From Candidatus Velamenicoccus archaeovorus (GTDB taxonomy: Bacteria > Omnitrophota > Gorgyraeia > Velamenicoccales > Velamenicoccaceae): 32,000 nt of DNA. Shown here in pieces: positions 2,723-25,652 of this stretch. The stretch covers positions 450,001 through 482,000 of the forward strand of contig NZ_CP019384.1 of NCBI RefSeq assembly GCF_004102945.1, written 5' to 3'. The notes under the pieces are model-generated. The model saw nothing but the letters and a program-made list of their open reading frames with translations, did not search any database and was not told the origin of the DNA. How positions within the stretch are numbered: the first letter of the stretch is position 1; every line of letters begins with the position of its first letter. Both the position numbers and the translations under genes were made by a program.

Positions 2723-3026
2723 AATGATCGCTTGAGATGTTTTCTAAATGTACTTTAACCTAAATATTATACTCCCCGCATAAAATTTCAATCTATTTCT
2801 ATGCGGCGGAGTATAAAAATATTGTTTAGCGTCTTAAAACACAGACAGTTTTCATGGAGTTCTTGGCCTGCATCGAGCAAGGACTTCAGTTCGTTTCACA
2901 AGGCGGGATTCCGTGCCTTCCTGGGATAGGGCACGCCTCATCCGATGGCCTTGAAGGTCTTTGCGCAAAGCCAAGGATAAAACCTCAAGGTGTTCAAAGA
3001 ACCTCTCTGAAAATGGCCGGATTTTC

Positions 3027-3054
3027 TTGTTTCCCCGCGCAATTCGGCTATAAT
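3027..3054 (+). promoter_or_regulatory. Sigma70-type promoter (TTGTTT-16-TATAAT) inside conserved 55-mer copy A
   Basis: ttgttt at 3027-3032 and tataat at 3049-3054. It lies upstream of the NlpC/P60 gene, and the same block recurs at 4751-4810. Confidence 0.5.
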
Positions 3055-3189
3055 GAAAAACTGATGATTCAGAGAGATCCAAGAGGGCGTGGGCCTATGG
3101 GATTTTTCTCATCTATTTCTCCCCGATACAAGCAATCCCGCCGATTTTTTATCAAAGACAGGCGGCGGCCTGATAAAAGCTGAAGGAGT

Positions 3190-4167
3190 TTGAGCAGGAA
3201 GATGGTCAACAAGACAATAATGGTCTTATTATTTGCCTTGATATTTTTTTCGCAGGCAGGCAGTGCTGTCGCCGCTCAAAGGTTTATGGTGGTGACAGCG
3301 CCGGTCGCCGATTTAAGGAAAGAACCCCAGGAAAGAGACTCCGCCTACGATCATGACGATCTGCAGGAGACCCAGGTATTGTTCAACGAAGTTCTCTTGT
3401 ATAAGTCTTCGATGGGCGATTGGTATTACGTCGAGGCTGTTGAGCAGAAAAACTTTAGGCAAGATAACCGGTGGAGGGGATACCGGGGGTATATCCGGAA
3501 AGAAGATACGAGGTTTGTCGGTCGGCTTCCGGAGTACAATTCCGTTGTCAGCGCCAGGATCGCCGATGTGTTCGACGCCCCTTTGCCGGATGCGCGGATT
3601 TTGCTTTCTGCTTCTATCGGAACGAGATTCAGGATCGTCGGCGATCAAAAAGATTTCTACAAGGTTGAGATGGGGGAAGGCGGTTTTGGCTGGGTCTCCA
3701 AGGATGCCTTGAGAAAGACAGAAGGGGTGATCCCGCGGACGGACACAAGAGAAGAGCTTATCGAAACCTCAAAGCTCTTTCTGGGGGTCCCCTACCTGTG
3801 GGGAGGGAGGTCTCAGGCGGGCGTCGACTGTTCAGGCTTGGTCAATCTCGTTTATCGTGCCCAGGGAATGGAAGTCCCCCGGGATGCGCAAGAACAGTGG
3901 ATGACGGCAAGAAAAATAACGGCGGGACAGTTAAGGCCGGCCGATCTGATATTCATATCGCGCAAAGACGATCTTGGCTCCATAGTCCACGTGATGCTGT
4001 TTTTGGGCGGCGAGGATTTTATCGAGGCCCCGGGAACAGGGAAGTCCGTTTGGATCACTGATTTCAAGAATAAATTCGGCATGGGTCTGGAAGATCTTAA
4101 AAGGCAAGATTTTGTCGTTGATGGAAAAAAGATATTTTTTGGGAGGGTCAAAGTCTTAGGAAGATGA
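3190..4167 (+). CDS. NlpC/P60 (C40) family peptidoglycan hydrolase with N-terminal SH3-like region, secreted
   Basis: Signal peptide present. Catalytic Cys context GVDCSGLVNLVY and downstream HVMLFLG. The ATG at 3202 is an alternative in-frame start. Confidence 0.85.
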   Translation: MSRKMVNKTIMVLLFALIFFSQAGSAVAAQRFMVVTAPVADLRKEPQERDSAYDHDDLQETQVLFNEVLLYKSSMGDWYYVEAVEQKNFRQDNRWRGYRGYIRKEDTRFVGRLPEYNSVVSARIADVFDAPLPDARILLSASIGTRFRIVGDQKDFYKVEMGEGGFGWVSKDALRKTEGVIPRTDTREELIETSKLFLGVPYLWGGRSQAGVDCSGLVNLVYRAQGMEVPRDAQEQWMTARKITAGQLRPADLIFISRKDDLGSIVHVMLFLGGEDFIEAPGTGKSVWITDFKNKFGMGLEDLKRQDFVVDGKKIFFGRVKVLGR

Positions 4168-4335: not shown

Positions 4336-4360
4336 CTGCATGTTTTGTGTAGAAAAAATT

Positions 4361-4478
4361 TTGACAGGAAAGATAAACGATTATAACATTATATCTTTCT
4401 GAGTGCATATATACAGGTTCGTGCGTGTGGAGAAGTATGAGACAAAGACGTCCATATGATCTTCTGGGGACGTCTTTT
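4361..4478 (+). promoter_or_regulatory. Repeat cassette copy 1: TTGACA-17-TAACAT promoter, short leader with mini-ORF start, hairpin with degraded T-tract
   Basis: About 97 nt (4382-4478) are near-identical to 9765-9862, with 2 mismatches by eye. TTGACA at 4361-4366, TAACAT at 4384-4389, stem aagacgtcc/ggacgtctt. Only 4 T follow the stem. Confidence 0.55.
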
Positions 4479-4640: not shown

Positions 4641-4758
4641 AACCCTCGCCTTGAATTTGTTTCCGCGCCGCAGGAACGCAAGAAGATCACCCTGCCGACA
4701 ACAACCCGGCACAGGCGTTAATTCCCCCAAAGCATCCTTTTTGAACCGCTGAATTTTC

Positions 4759-4786
4759 TTGTTTCCCCGCGTAATTCGGCTATAAT
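4759..4786 (+). promoter_or_regulatory. Sigma70-type promoter (TTGTTT-16-TATAAT) inside conserved 55-mer copy B, upstream of carB
   Basis: ttgttt at 4759-4764 and tataat at 4781-4786. The block 4751-4810 matches 3019-3078. Confidence 0.5.
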
Positions 4787-5016
4787 GGAAACCTGTGGAT
4801 TCAGAAAAGCCCGTCAGGACAAAGAAGTCAGCGGGCCTTTGACGTGCCTCGCGTTTTGAGACGCGGGGATTGATTTCCGCAGATACGAAACATCCTCCAT
4901 CTCTATGACGGACCTGACGATCAACGGCGATCGCCTTTACCGCAGTATCTTCCTTAACACACTCTTTGTCTCTCATCCTGTCTTAAATCCTGTTTCTGCC
5001 ATTTTCCGGAGGTTTC

Positions 5017-8000
5017 ATGCCCAGACGTAACGACATCCATAAGATCCTTATTATCGGTTCAGGCCCGATCATTATCGGCCAGGCGTGCGAGTTCGATTAT
5101 TCGGGGACCCAGGCGTGCAAGGCGTTGAAAAAAGAAGGTTATGAGATCGTTCTGGTTAACTCTAATCCGGCGACGATCATGACCGACCCGGGCATGGCGG
5201 ACAGGACATATATCGAACCCCTGACCGTTGAAAGCTTAGAGAAGATCATTGCCCAGGAAAGGCCCGATGCCCTGCTTCCGAATTTAGGCGGCCAGACCGG
5301 CCTTAATCTGGCGTCCAGCCTTTACAAGGCGGGTATCCTGAAAAAATACAAAGTCGAAGTGATCGGCGTCAAGGCGGACGCGATCGAACGCGGCGAAGAC
5401 CGGGAAGTTTTTAAGCAGACCATGAAGCAGTTGGATATTCCGGTACCTCGCTCGGAGATCGCGCATACCGTCGAGCAAGCCCAAGAGATCGCGTCGCGGA
5501 TCGGTTTGCCGGTCGTGGTCCGTCCGGCCTATACGCTGGGAGGGACCGGCGGCGGCATCGCCTACAACGGCGAGGAGCTTAAGGTCATCGCGACGCGCGG
5601 CCTGACCATGAGCATCGTCCATCAGGTTTTGATCGAAGAGGCGGTCATCGGCTGGGAAGAGCTTGAGCTTGAAGTCGTGCGCGACAAAAACAACCAGAAG
5701 ATCACCGTCTGTTTCATCGAAAATATCGATGCGATGGGCGTGCATACGGGCGACAGTTTTTGCGTGGCGCCGATGCTGACCGTCCCGAAAAAACTCCAGG
5801 AAAAAATGCAGGAGCTTTCCTATAAAATCGTTGACGCCATCGGCGTGGTCGGCGGCACGAACATCCAGTTTGCGCACAATAAGGCCGATGACCGCCTTGT
5901 CGTCATCGAGATCAACCCGAGGACGTCGCGCTCTTCGGCCCTGGCCTCCAAGGCCACGGGTTTTCCTATCGCCCTTGTGTCCACGCGGCTGGCGGCGGGG
6001 CTCACCCTTGATGAGATCCCATATTGGAAAGAAGGGACGCTGGAGAAGTATAAACCGAGCGGGGATTATGTCGTCATCAAATTTGCGCGCTGGGCCTTTG
6101 AGAAATTTGCGCAGGCCAAAGACGTCCTGGGGACCCAGATGAAGGCCGTCGGCGAAGTCATGAGCATCGGCAAGAATTTTAAAGAGGCTTTTCAAAAATC
6201 CATCCGGTCGCTTGAAATAGGCCGCCACGGGCTGGGCATGGCCAAGGATATCAGCAGTCTTTCGGCTGAAGAGCTCCTGGACCGCCTTTCGATGCCGTCG
6301 AGCGAGAGGGTGTTTTTGATGTATGAGGCCCTGCGCAAAGGCGTCAGCGTCAAAGAGCTCAATAAGCTGACGCACATCGGCTCCTGGTTCATCGGGGAGA
6401 TAAAAGACCTGGTGGAGTTCGAAGAGGAGATGAAGAAACATTCCTGGGGTGATCTTCCCGATGCGGGCCTCATCAAGGCCAAGGAGTGGGGTTTTTCCGA
6501 CAAATACCTATCCAAGCTTTTTAACGTCAAGGAATCCGAGGTGCGCAAAAAACGCCTGGCCGTGGGCAAGAAGGCCCGGTATGAAGCGGTGCCTGTCAGC
6601 GGCGTTGACAATGCCGCTTATTATTATTCGACGTATAGCGAAGGGAAAGACGAAGTCCCGGTATCACCGAACAAAAAAGTCATGATCCTGGGCGGCGGCC
6701 CCAACCGTATCGGCCAGGGGATCGAGTTTGATTATACCTGCGTGCATGCGGCGCTCGCGTTGCGGGATGAAGGTTATGAATCCATCATGGTGAATTGTAA
6801 TCCTGAGACCGTCTCGACCGATTACGATACGTCCAACAAGCTTTATTTCGAGCCCGTGACGGTGGAAGACGTCCTGGCCATTTACGAGAAAGAGAAGCCC
6901 ATCGGCGTGATCGCCCAGTTCGGCGGCCAGACGCCGCTGAATATCGCGGCAGAACTCAAGCGCTGCGGGGTCAGGATACTGGGGACGACTCCGGAGAATA
7001 TCGCCATGGCCGAGGACCGGGAACTTTTCCGCCAGAGGATGCTGGACCTGGGCATCCTGCAGCCGGAAAGCCAGACAGCGCGTTCGCTCGACGAGGCCCT
7101 GAAGATCGCCCAAAAGATCGGCTACCCTTTGATGGTCAGGCCTTCGTTTGTCCTGGGCGGCCGGGGCATGGAGATCATTTATGACGAATCGGCACTGGCC
7201 AAATACGCCCTGGAGGCCATCAACGTTTCGCCTGAATATCCCATGCTGATCGACAGGTTTTTGGAGGAGGCCCTCGAGACTGAAGTGGATGCGCTTTCTG
7301 ACGGGCAAGAGACGTTCGTCGCCGCCATCATGGAACACATCGAGCAGGCGGGCATTCACTCCGGGGACTCCGCCTGCGTGATCCCGCCGAGGTCCATCAA
7401 GCCCAAACACATCGAGACCATCATGAGATATACGGACATGATCGCCAAGAGCCTGGAGGTGGTCGGGCTGATGAATATCCAATATGCCATCTGCGGCGAC
7501 GAGGTTTATGTCTTGGAGGCAAACCCGCGGGCCTCCCGCACGGTCCCCGTTGTTTCCAAGGTCACGGGGATCCTGATCGCGCGCATCGCCACGCAGCTCA
7601 TGCTCGGCAAAAAGCTTACTGATTTTCCTCAACTGAAACGCAGGTTCAAGCCGCCCATGGTGGGCGTCAAAGAGGCCATCTTTCCTTTTAATATGTTTCC
7701 CGAAGTCGACCCTGTCCTTGGCCCCGAGATGAGAGCGACGGGCGAGGTGATGGGCGCTGCCGATACGTTTGAAGCCGCCTTCTTCAAGGCCGAGGACGCC
7801 GCGGGTTCGAGGCTTCCCCTTCAGGGGACCGTTTTGATCACTGTGACCGACAGCGATAAGAGGGAGGCCATCGGGTTGGCGCGCAAACTCAAAGAGCTGG
7901 GGTTCAACATTTATGCGACAGAACACACCGGACGCCATCTGAAAGAAAGAGGCATCGAAAACAGGGTGATCATGAAATTGCATGAGGGCAGGCCCAATAT

Positions 8001-8223
8001 CGCCGATGCCATTATCAACAAAGAAATCCAGTTGATCATCAACACGCCGGTGGGCAAGTCCGGCAAGGTCGACGACAGCTACATCCGGATCATGGCCATT
8101 CAGCATAAGATCCCGTATATCACGACGATGGCCGCGGCCAAGGCCAGCGTCGATGCGATCGAGGCCATGCGCAACAAAGAGATCGTTCCGAAGGCGCTGC
8201 AGGATTACCATAAGGGCGTGTAG
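5017..8223 (+). CDS. carB: Carbamoyl-phosphate synthase large subunit
   Basis: 1068 aa with two ATP-grasp halves (IGQACEFDYSGTQA and IGQGIEFDYTCVHA) and a C-terminal MGS-like domain. GGAGG lies 5 nt upstream of the ATG. No carA is adjacent. Confidence 0.97.
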   Translation: MPRRNDIHKILIIGSGPIIIGQACEFDYSGTQACKALKKEGYEIVLVNSNPATIMTDPGMADRTYIEPLTVESLEKIIAQERPDALLPNLGGQTGLNLASSLYKAGILKKYKVEVIGVKADAIERGEDREVFKQTMKQLDIPVPRSEIAHTVEQAQEIASRIGLPVVVRPAYTLGGTGGGIAYNGEELKVIATRGLTMSIVHQVLIEEAVIGWEELELEVVRDKNNQKITVCFIENIDAMGVHTGDSFCVAPMLTVPKKLQEKMQELSYKIVDAIGVVGGTNIQFAHNKADDRLVVIEINPRTSRSSALASKATGFPIALVSTRLAAGLTLDEIPYWKEGTLEKYKPSGDYVVIKFARWAFEKFAQAKDVLGTQMKAVGEVMSIGKNFKEAFQKSIRSLEIGRHGLGMAKDISSLSAEELLDRLSMPSSERVFLMYEALRKGVSVKELNKLTHIGSWFIGEIKDLVEFEEEMKKHSWGDLPDAGLIKAKEWGFSDKYLSKLFNVKESEVRKKRLAVGKKARYEAVPVSGVDNAAYYYSTYSEGKDEVPVSPNKKVMILGGGPNRIGQGIEFDYTCVHAALALRDEGYESIMVNCNPETVSTDYDTSNKLYFEPVTVEDVLAIYEKEKPIGVIAQFGGQTPLNIAAELKRCGVRILGTTPENIAMAEDRELFRQRMLDLGILQPESQTARSLDEALKIAQKIGYPLMVRPSFVLGGRGMEIIYDESALAKYALEAINVSPEYPMLIDRFLEEALETEVDALSDGQETFVAAIMEHIEQAGIHSGDSACVIPPRSIKPKHIETIMRYTDMIAKSLEVVGLMNIQYAICGDEVYVLEANPRASRTVPVVSKVTGILIARIATQLMLGKKLTDFPQLKRRFKPPMVGVKEAIFPFNMFPEVDPVLGPEMRATGEVMGAADTFEAAFFKAEDAAGSRLPLQGTVLITVTDSDKREAIGLARKLKELGFNIYATEHTGRHLKERGIENRVIMKLHEGRPNIADAIINKEIQLIINTPVGKSGKVDDSYIRIMAIQHKIPYITTMAAAKASVDAIEAMRNKEIVPKALQDYHKGV

Positions 8224-8753
8224 GGCCGCCGCACAAGCGGAGGGTTTAACCCAGAAAGGGTAGGCCTCTGCATTCCACATAGCGGAGGGTCTAATTCCGC
8301 CGGAGGCGGAAGGATTAAAGCAATCAACATTACTCCTTGCGTCTAATCACTTGGAAATTTTCGCCAGGGTAGGCCGTCGGCCTGGCGTAGCCGGCCAGGA
8401 CGGCCATCCGGCAAAAATTTCCTGCGTAGCCGCAGGGTTAATTTTGCAAGGAATAGGAACTCTATTATAGGCAAAATTAAGGAATAAGCGTTGACCCCTC
8501 GCTTAAGCACTTGAGAATTTTAGCCACGACGGGTCGGCAAAAATTCTCTGCGTAAGCTCGGAGTTAATTTTGTAAGGAAAGAGACCTCGATATAGGCAAA
8601 ATTAAGGAATAAGCATTGACTTCTCGCCTAAACACTCGAAAATTTACTGCCAGGGTTGGCTTGGCGGCCAGCCGGCGTAAATTTTCTTCGTAGGCTCGAA
8701 GTTGATTTTGCAAGGTAGGTAACCTCGCTATAGACAAAATCAAGGAGGGCAGT
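8224..8753 (+). repeat. Composite structured repeat array: H0/H1/H2 hairpins (8224-8329) plus three tandem U modules (8330-8490, 8491-8615, 8616-8749)
   Basis: Repeated units each carry two conserved hairpins (P1, P2) with compensatory substitutions. The last unit ends in AAGGAGG, 5 nt before the ATG at 8754. Confidence 0.8.
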
Positions 8754-9719
8754 ATGAAGACGAAGGAGATCCCGGCCGACAAACTGAACTCTAGGCTTTT
8801 CATCGCAGAAAAAGTCAGGGACATCGACCGGGCCGTCAAATCCGGTTTTGCCATTAACGCCCTTTCCGGCGGCGTGGATTCATCGGCTGTCACCATGCTG
8901 GGGCACAAGGCCCTGGGCAAGAGGCTCAAGACTTATTTCATCGATAACGGCATTATGCGCCGCAATGAACCGCGGCAGATCGTCCTTTTATTCAAGCGGC
9001 TGGGCGTTACGGTGGATATCATCGACGCCAAAGAAAAATTCTTTAAGGCCCTCAAGGGGGTAACGGACCCCGAAGAAAAGAGGGAGGCCATCACCAGGAC
9101 ATTCTATAAGGATGTCTTCGGCAGTCTGGTGAGGAACAGCAAGGCCAAGTATCTTTTGCAGGGGACTATTTTGACGGACGTCGATGAGACGGTCGCCGGC
9201 ATCAAGCGCCAGCACAATGTTTTCAAGCAATTGGGGATCGACCCGCAGAAGGCCTTTGGTTATAAGATCCTGGAGCCTCTGGTCCAGCTGCGTAAAGACG
9301 GCGTGCGCAAGGTCGCCCAGGCGCTGGGATTGCCGCCTTCAGTATTCAGCCGTATGCCGTTTCCCGGGCCGGCCCTGGCCGCTCGCGTGATCGGCGAGGT
9401 GACACCCGAGAAAATCGAAATGGTGCGTCATGCCACGGCCATTACGGAAGAGGCCCTTGTCTCACAGAAGGCGTTTCAATGCATGGCCATTCTTCACAAC
9501 GACCGGGTCACGGGCATCCGGGACGGCAGGAGGGATTTCGGCATGCAGATAGAGATCCGTTGCTGGGACAGTATCGACGCCCGCAAAGCAGAGCCGACCA
9601 GGCTCCCTTATGAGATACTCAGTCTTCTGGCGAGGCGTATCGTGACGGAAGTCCCTGGCGTCGTGAGCGTGACCTATAACATCACGCCCAAGCCGCCGTC
9701 GACCATGGAAGCGATATAA
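8754..9719 (+). CDS. GMP synthase ATP-pyrophosphatase subunit (subunit-B type, no glutaminase domain)
   Basis: PP-loop ALSGGVDSSAV. guaA-like blocks FIDNGIMRRNE, LLQGTI..DV, ILEPL..LRKD.VR, PFPGPALA.RV, and a C-terminal KPPSTMEAI. The 321 aa correspond to the C-terminal half of bacterial GuaA. Confidence 0.8.
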   Translation: MKTKEIPADKLNSRLFIAEKVRDIDRAVKSGFAINALSGGVDSSAVTMLGHKALGKRLKTYFIDNGIMRRNEPRQIVLLFKRLGVTVDIIDAKEKFFKALKGVTDPEEKREAITRTFYKDVFGSLVRNSKAKYLLQGTILTDVDETVAGIKRQHNVFKQLGIDPQKAFGYKILEPLVQLRKDGVRKVAQALGLPPSVFSRMPFPGPALAARVIGEVTPEKIEMVRHATAITEEALVSQKAFQCMAILHNDRVTGIRDGRRDFGMQIEIRCWDSIDARKAEPTRLPYEILSLLARRIVTEVPGVVSVTYNITPKPPSTMEAI

Positions 9720-9743
9720 GACTGTTGAGCCGATAAAAAAATA

Positions 9744-9873
9744 TTGACAGGTCGGCAAAACGGTTATAACATTATATCTTTCTGAGTGCATATATACAGG
9801 TTCATGCGTGTGGAGTAGTATGAGACAAAGACGTCCATATGATCTTCTGGGGACGTCTTTTTTTTGCACCTAG
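9744..9873 (+). promoter_or_regulatory. Repeat cassette copy 2: promoter, 17-codon Arg-rich mini-ORF and intrinsic terminator upstream of the nfnA-like gene
   Basis: TTGACA at 9744-9749 and TAACAT at 9767-9772. GGAG then ATG at 9820 (MRQRRPYDLLGTSFFCT*, stop 9871-9873). Stem 9828-9836/9851-9859 followed by T8 (9858-9865). Confidence 0.6.

Positions 9874-12185: not shown

Positions 12186-12188
<3 letters not shown>
10758..12188 (+). CDS. GltD-family NADPH-dependent oxidoreductase, NfnB/SudA-type (glutamate synthase small-chain-like)
   Basis: N-terminal Fe-S motifs CLQCKDPKCIAGCPVGIDI and CGRVCP. Two Rossmann motifs, VAVVGSGPAGL and VVIGGGNTAMD. 476 aa. Confidence 0.85.
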
Positions 12189-13865
<1,677 letters not shown>

Positions 13866-15145: not shown

Positions 15146-15225
15146 AGGTATGACTCTGCGCGGCCTAAAGCTCCGCCCTTTAGGGCGCAAGAGTGTTGTG
15201 GCCGCTTAGAGTAACCCGAAACAAG

Positions 15226-15267
15226 CCCCGGCCCTGGCCTTGCCCGAATGGCAGGCCGAGGCCGGGG
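15226..15267. repeat. GC-rich REP-like palindrome (CTGGCCTTGCCC family)
   Basis: ccccggcc...ggccgggg outer stem enclosing ctggccttgcccgaatggcaggcc. It shares the 16-mer ggccctggccttgccc with 28870-28885. Confidence 0.6.
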
Positions 15268-15334
15268 AATATGGGTTGACTTTCATGTCTTTTTTGATCG
15301 TATGTTTTCGTAAGTGAAAACAAAGGAGAGGGTC

Positions 15335-25269: not shown

Positions 25270-25398
25270 GTGCGGAGATATGGAACATATCTCCCTTTTT
25301 TTATTTTGTCTATTGTTGCCGGATGCGTCACGCCGAAAGTCTATGTGAATCCGCAGAAGACGGTCGAGGAGATCGGCGAGGACGAGGCAGGGAGATAA
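25270..25398 (+). CDS. Mini-lipoprotein (42 aa), start uncertain
   Basis: The GTG frame gives MRRYGTYLPFFILSIVAG|CVTPKVYVNPQKTVEEIGEDEAGR*, with a lipobox. The ATG at 25256, with AAGGAG 9 nt upstream, is out of frame by one T at the T7 tract 25296-25302. Confidence 0.4.
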   Translation: MRRYGTYLPFFILSIVAGCVTPKVYVNPQKTVEEIGEDEAGR

Positions 25399-25652
25399 CC
25401 CAGAAAGGGTAGGCCTTCCTCATACCATTAAAGGAAGGGCCTAACCCAGAAAGGGTAGGCCTTCGCAATACCAAATAAGCGAAGGGCCTAATTTTACCGG
25501 AGGCGGAAGGATTAAGGAAATAAACGTTACTCCTTGTCTAAGCACTTGAAAATTTATGCCAAGACACGTCGGCATAAATTTTCTTCGCAGGCTCGGAGTT
25601 CATTTTGTAACGAAAGGCTACCCTGTTATAGGCAAAATGAAGGAGGCGTAAG
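25399..25652 (+). repeat. Structured repeat array: H1 (25399-25444), H1 (25445-25491), H2 (25492-25510), U module (25527-25647)
   Basis: Same module family as 8224-8753. It begins directly after the TAA at 25396-25398 and ends in AAGGAGG, 6 nt before the ATG at 25653. Confidence 0.8.

Follow-up and report, generated by a model that had tools for sequence, protein, structure and literature searches.

REP/BIME sequences of enterobacteria are mosaics of small palindromes, which are extragenic, often intercistronic and transcribed; the REPs are palindromes of 20-40 nucleotides (nt) in alternating orientation, are found mostly 3' of genes, have a link to RAYT transposases, and affect mRNA stability or attenuation. 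The intercistronic RNase III signals of phage T7 are irregular hairpins with internal loops, whose cleavage produces defined ends and translation-competent leaders, and tandem aptamers are known from riboswitches. BOX elements (boxA-boxB(n)-boxC) are modular interspersed intergenic sequences in which the number of internal modules varies between strains; they are co-transcribed, form stable stem-loops and are thought to affect adjacent genes (PMC3049150, where BIME attenuation is also mentioned). MIRUs are tandem elements of about 50-100 nt or more within operons, located at the start of the downstream gene, variable in copy number and preserving its translation (PMC12548453). The Correia elements (CREE) of Neisseria are structured repeats of 100-160 nt in transcribed intergenic DNA, which may influence neighbouring genes and whose hairpins are RNase III substrates (PMC2649163). 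Here we describe an element from Candidatus Velamenicoccus archaeovorus (Omnitrophota) that joins traits seen separately elsewhere, namely the copy-number-variable tandem arrangement of BOX and MIRU and the covariation and fixed position of a cis-regulatory RNA. It was found in the spacer between carB and a guaA-like gene, within a stretch of 32,000 nt (positions 450,001 to 482,000 of contig NZ_CP019384.1, forward strand), which we call the window and in whose coordinates all positions are given.

The spacer is 530 nt long, and a repeat mosaic starts directly after the carB stop codon and occupies all of 8224-8753. A sequence-only reading of this DNA had described a tandem array at 8330-8749, made of three head-to-tail units (8330-8490, 8491-8615 and 8616-8749). 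These unit limits hold, and it is the extent of the mosaic that has to be widened, to the whole spacer. Tandem Repeats Finder gives 8409-8645 (period 125, 82% matches, score 332), and a repeat search of the window returned related copies at 8330-8749, 12189-12524 and 25511-25644. By a covariance model the window has six full copies (69-123 bits), no more, and a single partial one (27 bits); all lie on the + strand, and antisense scores are 18 bits at most. The 3' 18-mer TATAGGCAAAATTAAGGA is present six times in the window when up to 3 mismatches are allowed, again always on the + strand, where 0.02 occurrences are expected by chance. Each unit folds into two consecutive hairpins with no junction, a long irregular one composed of helices A and B and a short one, helix C, whose foot runs into AAGGA; in the last unit of an array this belongs to the Shine-Dalgarno (SD) sequence of the gene that follows. 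We read the element as a modular, sense-strand, cis-acting mRNA leader cassette that couples an SD-presenting hairpin to a long irregular hairpin and multiplies by duplication, and we give this reading as a whole a probability of about one half.

The fold was obtained from a profile-HMM alignment that is blind to pairing, in which mutual information (MI) was calculated over all column pairs. The top MI pairs are mostly nested and antiparallel: 13-86 (UA 29, CG 27, GC 14), 97-134 (AU 51, GC 24, CG 7), 31-71 (UA 29, CG 18, AU 13), 6-93 (UA 44, CG 23, UG 5), 24-78, 19-84 (AU 39, GC 33, GU 7) and 12-87 (CG 47, UA 20, UG 8). The other high-MI pairs, all non-canonical and in the variable tip of helix B, are a reflection of subfamilies. 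Helix A (columns 5-8/91-94, 11-14/85-88 and 19-20/83-84) is a long-range pairing between the 5' box ACUCCUYGCNU and a downstream strand RNGCNCGGAGU; it encloses helix B and carries a 2x2 internal loop and a 4-nt bulge with an invariant C18 (100%). Helix B (columns 23-35/67-79) is an AAAUUU-rich stem with a freely variable tip of 0 to >100 extra nt, so that the two helices together comprise 23 conserved pairs plus the variable tip. Helix C (columns 95-104/127-136) begins one nucleotide after the end of helix A and occurs in two forms, a short A-U hairpin (UURAUUUUG ... CAAAAUYAA) with a 22-nt loop containing the conserved UAAGGAA...AUAGG, and a GC-clamped short hairpin, UUAAUYCCGCC-AGA-GGCGGRAUUAA. 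Its 3' arm takes up the first two A's of AAGGAGG and leaves GGAGG unpaired. Conservation extends to unpaired bases in the helix-C loop (UAAGGAA, with G108 at 98% and A110 at 99%, and AUAGG at 123-127), and TT[G/T]AC and AAATTT are conserved in sequence besides their pairing. A K-turn, loop-E or tetraloop-receptor reading of the internal loop of helix C (UAAGGAA / UAUAGG) was considered by eye, found to amount to a loose likeness to the 11-nt receptor, and dropped; we make no claim of this kind.

The hairpins P1 and P2 of the sequence-only reading correspond to helices B and C, and the compensatory changes quoted for them are seen family-wide in the pair types at 31-71 and 97-134. The same reading had divided the unit into five parts; the two hairpins stand, whereas its separate "5' box" and "linker GCGTAG" are, by MI, the two strands of helix A. 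It had also suggested that the AAGGA of an internal unit pairs with the TCCTT of the next one, and this has to be abandoned, because column 6 covaries with column 93 within its own unit (it is C in 26 of 81 copies, which there have G at column 93) while A139 of AAGGA is near-invariant (97%).

Pairing was then compared with controls in two alignments. In a structure-blind MAFFT alignment of 56 compact copies (A1), 91.5% of the cells are paired against a shuffled mean of 80.9%, a value reached in none of 500 shuffles; both sides have changed in 29 of the 33 pairs (shuffled mean 14.9), and the covariation score is 0.354, compared with 0.123 for the best alternative in which the partners were slid. 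An alignment made with the covariance model from 93 hits (A2) gave similar results, with 92.2% of the cells paired (shuffled mean 80.4%), both sides changed in 30 of 33 pairs, and a score of 0.268 against 0.070 at best with slid partners. Helices A, B and C also come out of minimum-free-energy folds of single units (z between -1.9 and -5.4); this holds for unit 2 of the carB spacer folded alone and for unit 3 (z = -3.6). In the metagenome-assembled genome (MAG) NC_groundwater_1888, helix B is unrelated in sequence (CCCCACCGUUUUGUUUC...GAAACAGUGGGG) and its pairing is kept. That the fold is under selection is therefore very likely. The proposal of selection on secondary structure rather than on sequence, made from the few drifting copies of the window, is thus supported by the pairing, the two-sided changes and the strong covariation in A1 relative to the controls.

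The family extends well outside the window. A scan of species-representative genomes with a helix-C pattern returned at least 97 stretches, and from the window and 53 loci among the matches listed we collected at least 111 copies by iterated nhmmer (E < 1e-4), of which dozens are dispersed and fall into recognizable subtypes; units are 117-200 nt long and arranged head-to-tail. The covariance model gave 93 hits across the collected loci. The remaining 44 pattern loci, from other phyla, had no nhmmer hit and are chance matches. A second, independent scan, of metagenome contigs and with a pattern drawn from helices A and B only, added 11 loci that score at least 50 bits with the covariance model. 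Among the matches listed, the positive loci come from MAGs labelled Omnitrophica or Omnitrophota (UBA6210, NC_groundwater_1888, DeMMO3_19 and STD1_200), "Planctomycetia" (three MAGs) and "Deltaproteobacteria" (MAG242). Since the amt product of the "Planctomycetia" MAG co20_28 shares 95% amino acid identity with that of UBA6210, these labels appear to stand for a single group of relatives. Across carB and guaA, the DNA of the window is about 90% identical to UBA6210 contig DISM01000004, and the guaA-like protein is 96% identical to its UBA6210 orthologue. The sequence-only reading had recognized no described RNA family here, and the searches bear it out: Rfam 15 gave no match in the whole window at gathering thresholds and, with permissive filters on 8200-8800, at best 13.8-20.2 bits (E 0.28-6.9) where the gathering scores are 41-99 bits, and the searchable literature on Omnitrophota/Omnitrophica and Velamenicoccus contains no mention of the element. 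We conclude that this is a real repeat family of Omnitrophota bacteria, and apparently an undescribed one.

The position of the element relative to genes is fixed. In all 111 tail sequences, the copy is followed by a start codon on the same strand or by another unit, and for most copies that have no following unit an ORF finder reports an adjacent same-strand open reading frame (ORF) of at least 60 codons. Terminal units read AAGGA followed by G in 58 of 71 cases, and in most the ATG or GTG follows after 6-10 nt, whereas all 21 internal units read AAGGA followed by A, typically as AAGGAAUAAGCG and then the next unit. In the carB spacer, the SD AAGGAGG of unit 3 lies at 8742-8748, separated by 5 nt from the ATG at 8754, and serves the guaA-like gene. 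The terminal AAGGA had been taken for the SD of the gene from this locus alone, and it holds for most of the family; we have little doubt that the element supplies the SD of the gene downstream. Arrays consist of one unit (44 arrays), two (20), three (5) or four (1), and many genes are preceded by helix C and SD alone (HMM columns ~71-142). On the upstream side, a co-directional ORF of at least 100 amino acids precedes 55 of 70 arrays, 30 of these 55 arrays start within 30 nt of its end, and several seemingly "divergent" cases are artefacts of ORF calling (e.g. yajC-secD in locus L097). First units often follow the upstream stop codon directly, with no duplicated sequence upstream. The genes served, identified from N-terminal translations and Pfam, include rpsF, rpsP, rpmI, secD, ybaB, pheT, nrdR, amt, gdhA, guaA, and genes for PFOR subunits, rubredoxin and ferredoxin. 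The element is retained at orthologous genes of different genomes: secD carries it in L097 and L045 (82% amino acid identity), rpsP in L062 and L045 (65%), and amt, rpsF, pheT and ybaB likewise.

A few leaders depart from this scheme. In copies ahead of pheT (L021 1706-1823 and L082 1707-1824) and nrdR (L017 2574-2699), AAUGA replaces AAGGA and its AUG is the gene start, so that the ORF starts where helix C has its foot and no SD stands at the usual distance; the sole SD-like motif is the UAAGGAA of the helix-C loop, about 30 nt upstream. Upstream of miaA (L040 2040-2095, equivalent to L136 10800-10750), a terminator-like hairpin, GGGAUUAUCAG...CUGGUAAUCCC followed by UUUUUCUU, is located between AAGGGA and ATG and includes the SD, and may be a gene-specific attenuator or translational lock added to the common leader. 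A divergent AT-rich copy in metagenome Ga0210019 (L174 210-363, 31% GC) keeps helices A and B, has a helix C of wholly different sequence (AAAUUUAUUU/AAAUAAAUUU), and shows no AAGGAGG ahead of the AUG; it hints at a distribution wider and more varied than that seen in the GTDB scan.

The arrays are probably transcribed, as leaders or spacers, because most of them immediately follow the upstream stop codon and a canonical promoter precedes one of them. This case is at UBA6210 locus L066, where a three-unit array sits in a divergent intergenic region and a promoter with 11 of 12 matches (TTGTCA, 16 nt with the TG of an extended -10, TATAAT) lies about 100 nt upstream, which would make the whole array a 5' untranslated region of roughly 600 nt. 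Canonical promoters of this clade are also found in the window, as TTGACA-17-TATAAC at 4360 and 9743 and as CTTGTTT-16-TATAAT at 3023 and 4755. Promoter activity of the units themselves would be incidental at most. As to the strand, G-U pairs outnumber A-C pairs by 123 to 71, with 40 versus 27 in helix A, 30 versus 24 in helix B and, most clearly, 53 versus 20 in helix C. This is modest evidence for the sense strand, and we favour as the stronger argument the common orientation with the downstream gene and the junction with its SD. Where the sequence-only reading had left the choice between an RNA and a DNA structure, the wobble counts lean weakly towards RNA, and orientation and SD context towards RNA of the sense strand. 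Judged from these sequence features, the element probably acts as a sense RNA that is co-transcribed with the neighbouring genes.

In the reading that we prefer, ordinary promoters further upstream would drive joint transcription of the units and the flanking genes, and the last unit provides the SD, with helix C presumably keeping GGAGG single-stranded at a fixed spot at the foot of the hairpin. Helix C would thereby insulate translation initiation from the sequence upstream, and might stabilize the 5' end. The hairpin of helices A and B would be the part that is recognized or processed, by a double-strand-specific endonuclease of the RNase III type, or would act as a stability determinant or as the binding site of a factor, and would uncouple the downstream cistron from the upstream one. 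We are led to processing, stability or factor binding by the 23 conserved pairs with variable tip, internal loop and bulge, and by the intercistronic position; indeed, helices A and B present the structural part of an RNase III-type signal, for which irregular double-stranded RNA of at least about 20 bp is needed between cistrons. Processing or stability is nonetheless a tentative assignment, for which the odds are adverse. Duplication and unequal recombination between units would generate and reshape arrays of one to four units, and gain or loss of a unit would not silence the gene, since each unit carries its own SD. A variant of this scheme is conceivable, in which the CUCCU of the 5' box, an anti-SD-like segment normally held by GGAG (columns 91-94), pairs with the true SD instead and the leader acts as a switch. 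In a more far-reaching version, which we hold to be unlikely, the element would punctuate operons: the A/B hairpin would be cut by a double-strand-specific endonuclease of the host, or cleave itself, turning polycistronic into monocistronic mRNAs that each start with an SD-presenting, stabilizing helix C, and the number of units would tune the ratio of neighbouring gene products. If so, it would be a bacterial counterpart of the tRNA punctuation of mitochondria, built from a self-propagating RNA cassette.

When compared with described systems, the element is a structured intergenic repeat and cis-acting leader that belongs to no named family, the defining features of BOX, MIRU, CREE and REP/BIME that were looked at (terminal inverted repeats and target duplications, insertion in either orientation, the through-ORF of MIRU and the end modules of BOX) being absent. 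It resembles BOX in being intergenic, folded and variable in the number of tandem modules. However, BOX has terminal modules with inverted-repeat similarity to an insertion sequence, lies in both orientations and has no SD, whereas here every module is complete, co-oriented with the downstream gene and terminated by an SD, and the fold covaries across genera; the arrays have no dedicated end modules, and consist of one to four equivalent units, sometimes after a partial unit with helix C only. The likeness to MIRU lies in size, tandem arrangement and the position at the start of a downstream gene, but MIRU maintains expression by means of a short ORF that overlaps the stop and start of the flanking genes and is coupled in translation to this gene (PMC12548453), and in our units no ORF runs through: an in-frame UAA follows AAGGAA, and none of the lengths of 161, 125 and 138 nt is divisible by 3. 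Columns 1-3 read TTG in 49% of the copies, and the reading frames differ between units; a leader peptide or MIRU-like ORF starting at this TTG, which stands 7 nt past AAGGA in about half of the units, was considered and rejected, its frames and stops being unconserved. Correia elements share the size, the structure and the transcribed intergenic setting, and the role of their hairpins as RNase III substrates is the one that we assign, by analogy, to helices A and B. They differ in being MITEs (miniature transposable elements with inverted repeats) that have terminal inverted repeats of 26 bp, TA duplications, an IHF site and ends that form promoters, inserted in either orientation (PMC2649163), whereas neither terminal inverted repeats nor target duplication nor insertion in either orientation was seen at the unit ends, in the flanks of first units, in the 111 tails or in the seven window copies, all on the + strand, and a minority of units is promoter-like. 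From REP/BIME the element is set apart by its unit size of 125-160 nt, by a strictly head-to-tail arrangement and by its definition through the junction with the next start codon. The T7 signals resemble it as irregular intercistronic hairpins and, under the preferred reading, would be a functional parallel; they have no sequence relationship to it, are single rather than tandem and include no SD hairpin, and in the element cleavage is only supposed. Tandem riboswitches and CsrA-bound leaders with several GGA motifs have in common with it repeated structured modules next to the SD, GGA motifs in a loop and in the SD, and an anti-SD-like segment, but the genes served here follow no common pathway and the fold has no aptamer-like junction; among these genes and in this fold we found neither the coherent pathway nor the multi-helix pocket of a riboswitch.

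The leading alternative is a selfish, non-autonomous interspersed repeat in the manner of MITE, REP/BIME, BOX or MIRU, whose hairpins would serve mobilization, for instance as single-stranded DNA seen by a transposase, and whose SD would merely render insertion harmless, with no gain for the host. We consider it rather improbable. Dozens of dispersed copies with subtypes are what such a repeat would produce, and MIRU provides the precedent of insertion at a start codon with expression preserved (PMC12548453). The arrays also turn over quickly. The carB-guaA spacer of UBA6210 contains a leading partial unit with helix C only, a few nt past the carB stop, followed by three units of other subtypes than those of the window, and a small GC-rich double hairpin (GCCGCAGAAAGCGGC...CCGGCCCAUCCGAUGGGGCCGG) is nested there in two copies, whereas the window has three intact units after other palindromic modules; unit number and subtype thus differ between these orthologous spacers. 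Small GC-rich hairpins nest in unit loops, and units form mosaics with other palindromic modules. Arrays are remodelled at about 10% DNA divergence, yet the presence of the element at a given gene is kept across genera, a combination that fits a functional leader expanding and contracting by recombination, and fits a well-tolerated selfish repeat too.

Other points weigh against our own reading as well. The flanking genes of the remodelled spacer are about 90% identical in DNA, and turnover at this pace would look alike for a selfish repeat. Both strands fold about equally well, and in helix B the count of 30 G-U is near that of 24 A-C, two points that also speak for a selfish repeat; the single pair 104-127 contributes 46 of the G-U cells. 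Helix C is weak, being nearly all A-U, and its conservation is in part an artefact of the pattern with which the copies were collected. The genes served share no obvious theme from which a specific regulatory logic could be read, and it is by inference that we speak of transcription through the arrays, of cleavage and of an effect on translation.

Against a selfish repeat stand the structure and placement of the unit. There are no terminal inverted repeats, the ends reading TTGAC.../TT(G)ACTCC... and ...AAGGA or ...CAAAATTAAGGA, with helix A internal and helix C outside it. Nor is there a target-site duplication, as first units abut stop codons and no AAGGA or other copy of the unit end is found upstream of them. 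A start codon on the same strand, or another unit, follows every listed copy, unlike MITE, REP and BOX; the element is retained at orthologous genes whose proteins are 65-82% identical, with helix sequences that differ and pairing that is kept; and the SD is tuned by position, AAGGAG in terminal and AAGGAA in internal units. No transposase was found among the window ORFs scanned, which cover part of the window.

A further alternative is a regulatory leader to which a global trans-acting factor binds, be it a GGA-binding protein of the CsrA type or a small ligand; it would use helix A and the 5' box-SD pairing as the two states of a switch, and the tandem copies would sharpen the response. Unpaired bases are indeed highly conserved (C18, G108 and A110 in UAAGGAA, AUAGG), two UAAGGA motifs lie about 30 nt apart in the hairpin loop and in the SD, an arrangement that recalls CsrA sites, the 5' box is complementary both to GGAG (columns 91-94) and to the SD, and in the minimum-free-energy fold of unit 12395-12527 CUCCUU pairs with AAGGAG. 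But the downstream genes are functionally unrelated, a multi-helix junction or pseudoknot typical of aptamers is absent, genes are also served by helix-C-only leaders and by the GC-type helix C with no loop motif, and internal units have no ORF to control. From these loci the element can be linked to neither csrA nor a ligand; tblastn searches for csrA and rnc gave no hits in the collected loci, a sample of about 1 Mb that is too small to judge their presence. We regard this explanation as distinctly unlikely.

It is still harder to see the unit as a DNA-level cassette, in which each copy would bring a sigma-70 promoter (TTGAC, 17 nt, and TAAATT or AAAATT in the 5' arm of helix B), perhaps with an intrinsic terminator or attenuator (a hairpin followed by UUAAUUUUG), as serial modules. 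A promoter scan does report TTGACC-16-GAGAAT at 8491 and TTGACT-16-GAAAAT at 8616, each with 9 of 12 matches, TT[G/T]AC and AAATTT are conserved, and a terminator-like call (hairpin plus TTAATTTTG) is made in every unit. Yet only 5 of 70 copies reach promoter matches of 5/6 and 4/6, the -35-like bases covary with columns 93-94 and so belong to helix A, the NC_groundwater_1888 lineage has no -10-like sequence at all, and the true promoters of the clade are canonical (TTGACA-17-TATAAC, TTGTCA-16-TATAAT), the one at L066 lying upstream of a whole array; a promoter cassette is thereby ruled out as a family feature. The mid-unit hairpin behind the terminator call (CCUGCG-UAGC-CGCAGG plus the U-tract) is poorly supported, with 39-69% canonical pairs in its three central positions and a 3' strand that belongs to helix A. 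Helix A ends at GGAG and is followed by UUAAUUUUG, whose U-tract is the covarying 5' arm of helix C; an attenuation reading would put 3' ends at UUAAUUUU. Efficient terminators before rpsF, rpsP, secD and pheT would presumably be lethal. This leaves the cassette very improbable. An integron attC-like site, a single-stranded DNA hairpin with paired boxes, unpaired spacer, extrahelical bases and variable tip, can be dismissed, since the likeness is superficial (helix A as two boxes split by the 2x2 loop, a 4-nt bulge, a variable-tip stem, one orientation for all copies between co-directional genes) while RYYYAAC / GTTRRRY core sites are absent from the unit ends, the neighbouring genes are syntenic core housekeeping genes (carB, guaA, rpsP, secD) rather than cassettes, units stand in tandem with no gene between them, and attC has no counterpart of helix C or the SD.

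Omnitrophota are uncultured, mostly ultra-small and probably host-dependent bacteria, and to our knowledge nothing is known on the control of gene expression in this phylum. The element probably has a large part in the way these cells make and translate their mRNAs, because it stands ahead of dozens of core genes, provides their ribosome-binding site, and has its shape kept by compensatory mutations across genera. If the A/B hairpin is truly a processing or regulator-binding signal, the unit would be a natural, modular "insulator plus ribosome-binding site" cassette, of interest to synthetic biology and a handle on post-transcriptional control in a candidate phylum. It is in any case a ready-made new RNA family, with a covariance model built and about 100 seed sequences. 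The features of the carB spacer and of the other copies in the window are listed in Table 1.

Table 1. Element copies, their helices and adjoining genes, in coordinates of the window
Feature	Position	Strand	Evidence or detail
carB (carbamoyl-phosphate synthase large subunit)	5017..8223	+	Pfam CPSase_L_D1/D2/D3 and MGS, E down to 2e-99
Proximal spacer, other small palindromic repeat modules	8224..8329	+	Repeat families D9 and D11, common to 25396-25536
Unit 1, 161 nt, long helix-B tip	8330..8490	+	Covariance model hit 96.5 bits, nhmmer column map, MAFFT alignment A1
Unit 1 helix A	8333-8350 with 8426-8437
Unit 1 helix B (P1)	8353-8365 with 8410-8422
Unit 1 helix C (P2)	8438-8447 with 8471-8480
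Unit 1 AAGGA	8479-8483		Then ATAAGCG
Unit 2, 125 nt, compact	8491..8615	+	Covariance model hit 122.7 bits, nhmmer column map
Unit 2 helix A	8495-8510 with 8552-8563
Unit 2 helix B	8513-8525 with 8536-8548
Unit 2 helix C	8564-8573 with 8596-8605
Unit 2 AAGGA	8604-8608		Then ATAAGCA
Unit 3, terminal	8616..8753	+	Covariance model hit 101.3 bits, nhmmer column map
Unit 3 helix A	8620-8635 with 8690-8701
Unit 3 helix B	8638-8650 with 8674-8686
Unit 3 helix C	8702-8711 with 8734-8743
guaA-like gene (GMP-synthase-C / PP-loop ATP-pyrophosphatase), 321 aa	8754..9719	+	Pfam GMP_synt_C 6e-20, NAD_synthase 1e-7
Second array, gltD-like stop (TGA 12186-12188) to gdhA ATG (12528)	12189..12527	+	Repeat search, covariance model, Pfam of flanking genes
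Second array, partial unit, helix C only	12189-12229	+
Second array, full unit	12237-12397	+
Second array, terminal unit, GC-type helix C TTAATCTCGCC/GGCGAGATTAA	12398-12527	+	AAGGAGG 12517-12523
Single unit ahead of unannotated 228-aa ORF (ATG 25653)	25527..25652	+	Covariance model 120 bits, fold z = -4.3

In the single unit at 25527-25652, helix C is TTCATTTTG/CAAAATGAA and AAGGAGG lies at 25640-25646; two TAACCCAGAAAGGGTAGGCC modules and a degenerate helix-C-like hairpin precede it. A comparable arrangement is found in the proximal part of the carB spacer, with a TAACCCAGAAAGGGTAGGCC module at 8247-8278 and, ahead of unit 1, a degenerate hairpin like the GC-type helix C, together with AAGGATTAAAG, at about 8292-8320. 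The same proximal modules also stand ahead of the arrays in loci L066 and L081.

The TAACCCAGAAAGGGTAGGCC-(hairpin)-GGGCC module occurs at 8247-8278 and 25396-25491 of the window (in the latter as a 46-nt tandem of two copies), at about 3270-3230 of L066 and at about 4830-4760 of L081. It is often ahead of leader units and sometimes within them, and is part of a BIME-like mosaic of small palindromes in this clade. The small GC-rich double hairpin, GCCGCAGAAAGCGGC-ACACC-GGCCCAUCCGAUGGGGCC, is found inside unit loops or junctions at several positions (L081 5245-5200 and 4880-4838; L055 ~3650 and 4840; L057 ~940; L026 1-208), and by its distribution it seems to behave like a tiny mobile palindrome nested in a larger repeat.

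Two further repeats of the window are associated with the promoters mentioned above. The copies at 4353-4478 and 9736-9861, which are 93% identical and have no Rfam hit, resemble a small-RNA gene: each has the TTGACA-17-TATAAC promoter, a predicted transcript of about 90 nt and, at its end, a strong terminator of the intrinsic type (GACGUCC...GGGACGUC with a U-run). The first copy precedes carB, and the second comes directly after the guaA-like gene. A 58-nt repeat at 3016-3073 and 4748-4805 (88% identical) contains the promoter-like CTTGTTT-16-TATAAT and may be a promoter module shared by the gene at 3190-4167 and carB. Finally, the GC-rich palindromic non-coding stretch at 15153-15282, after a Fic gene, has no meaningful Rfam hit and is 90% identical to L038 5421-5557 from another MAG; it is probably another interspersed repeat family.

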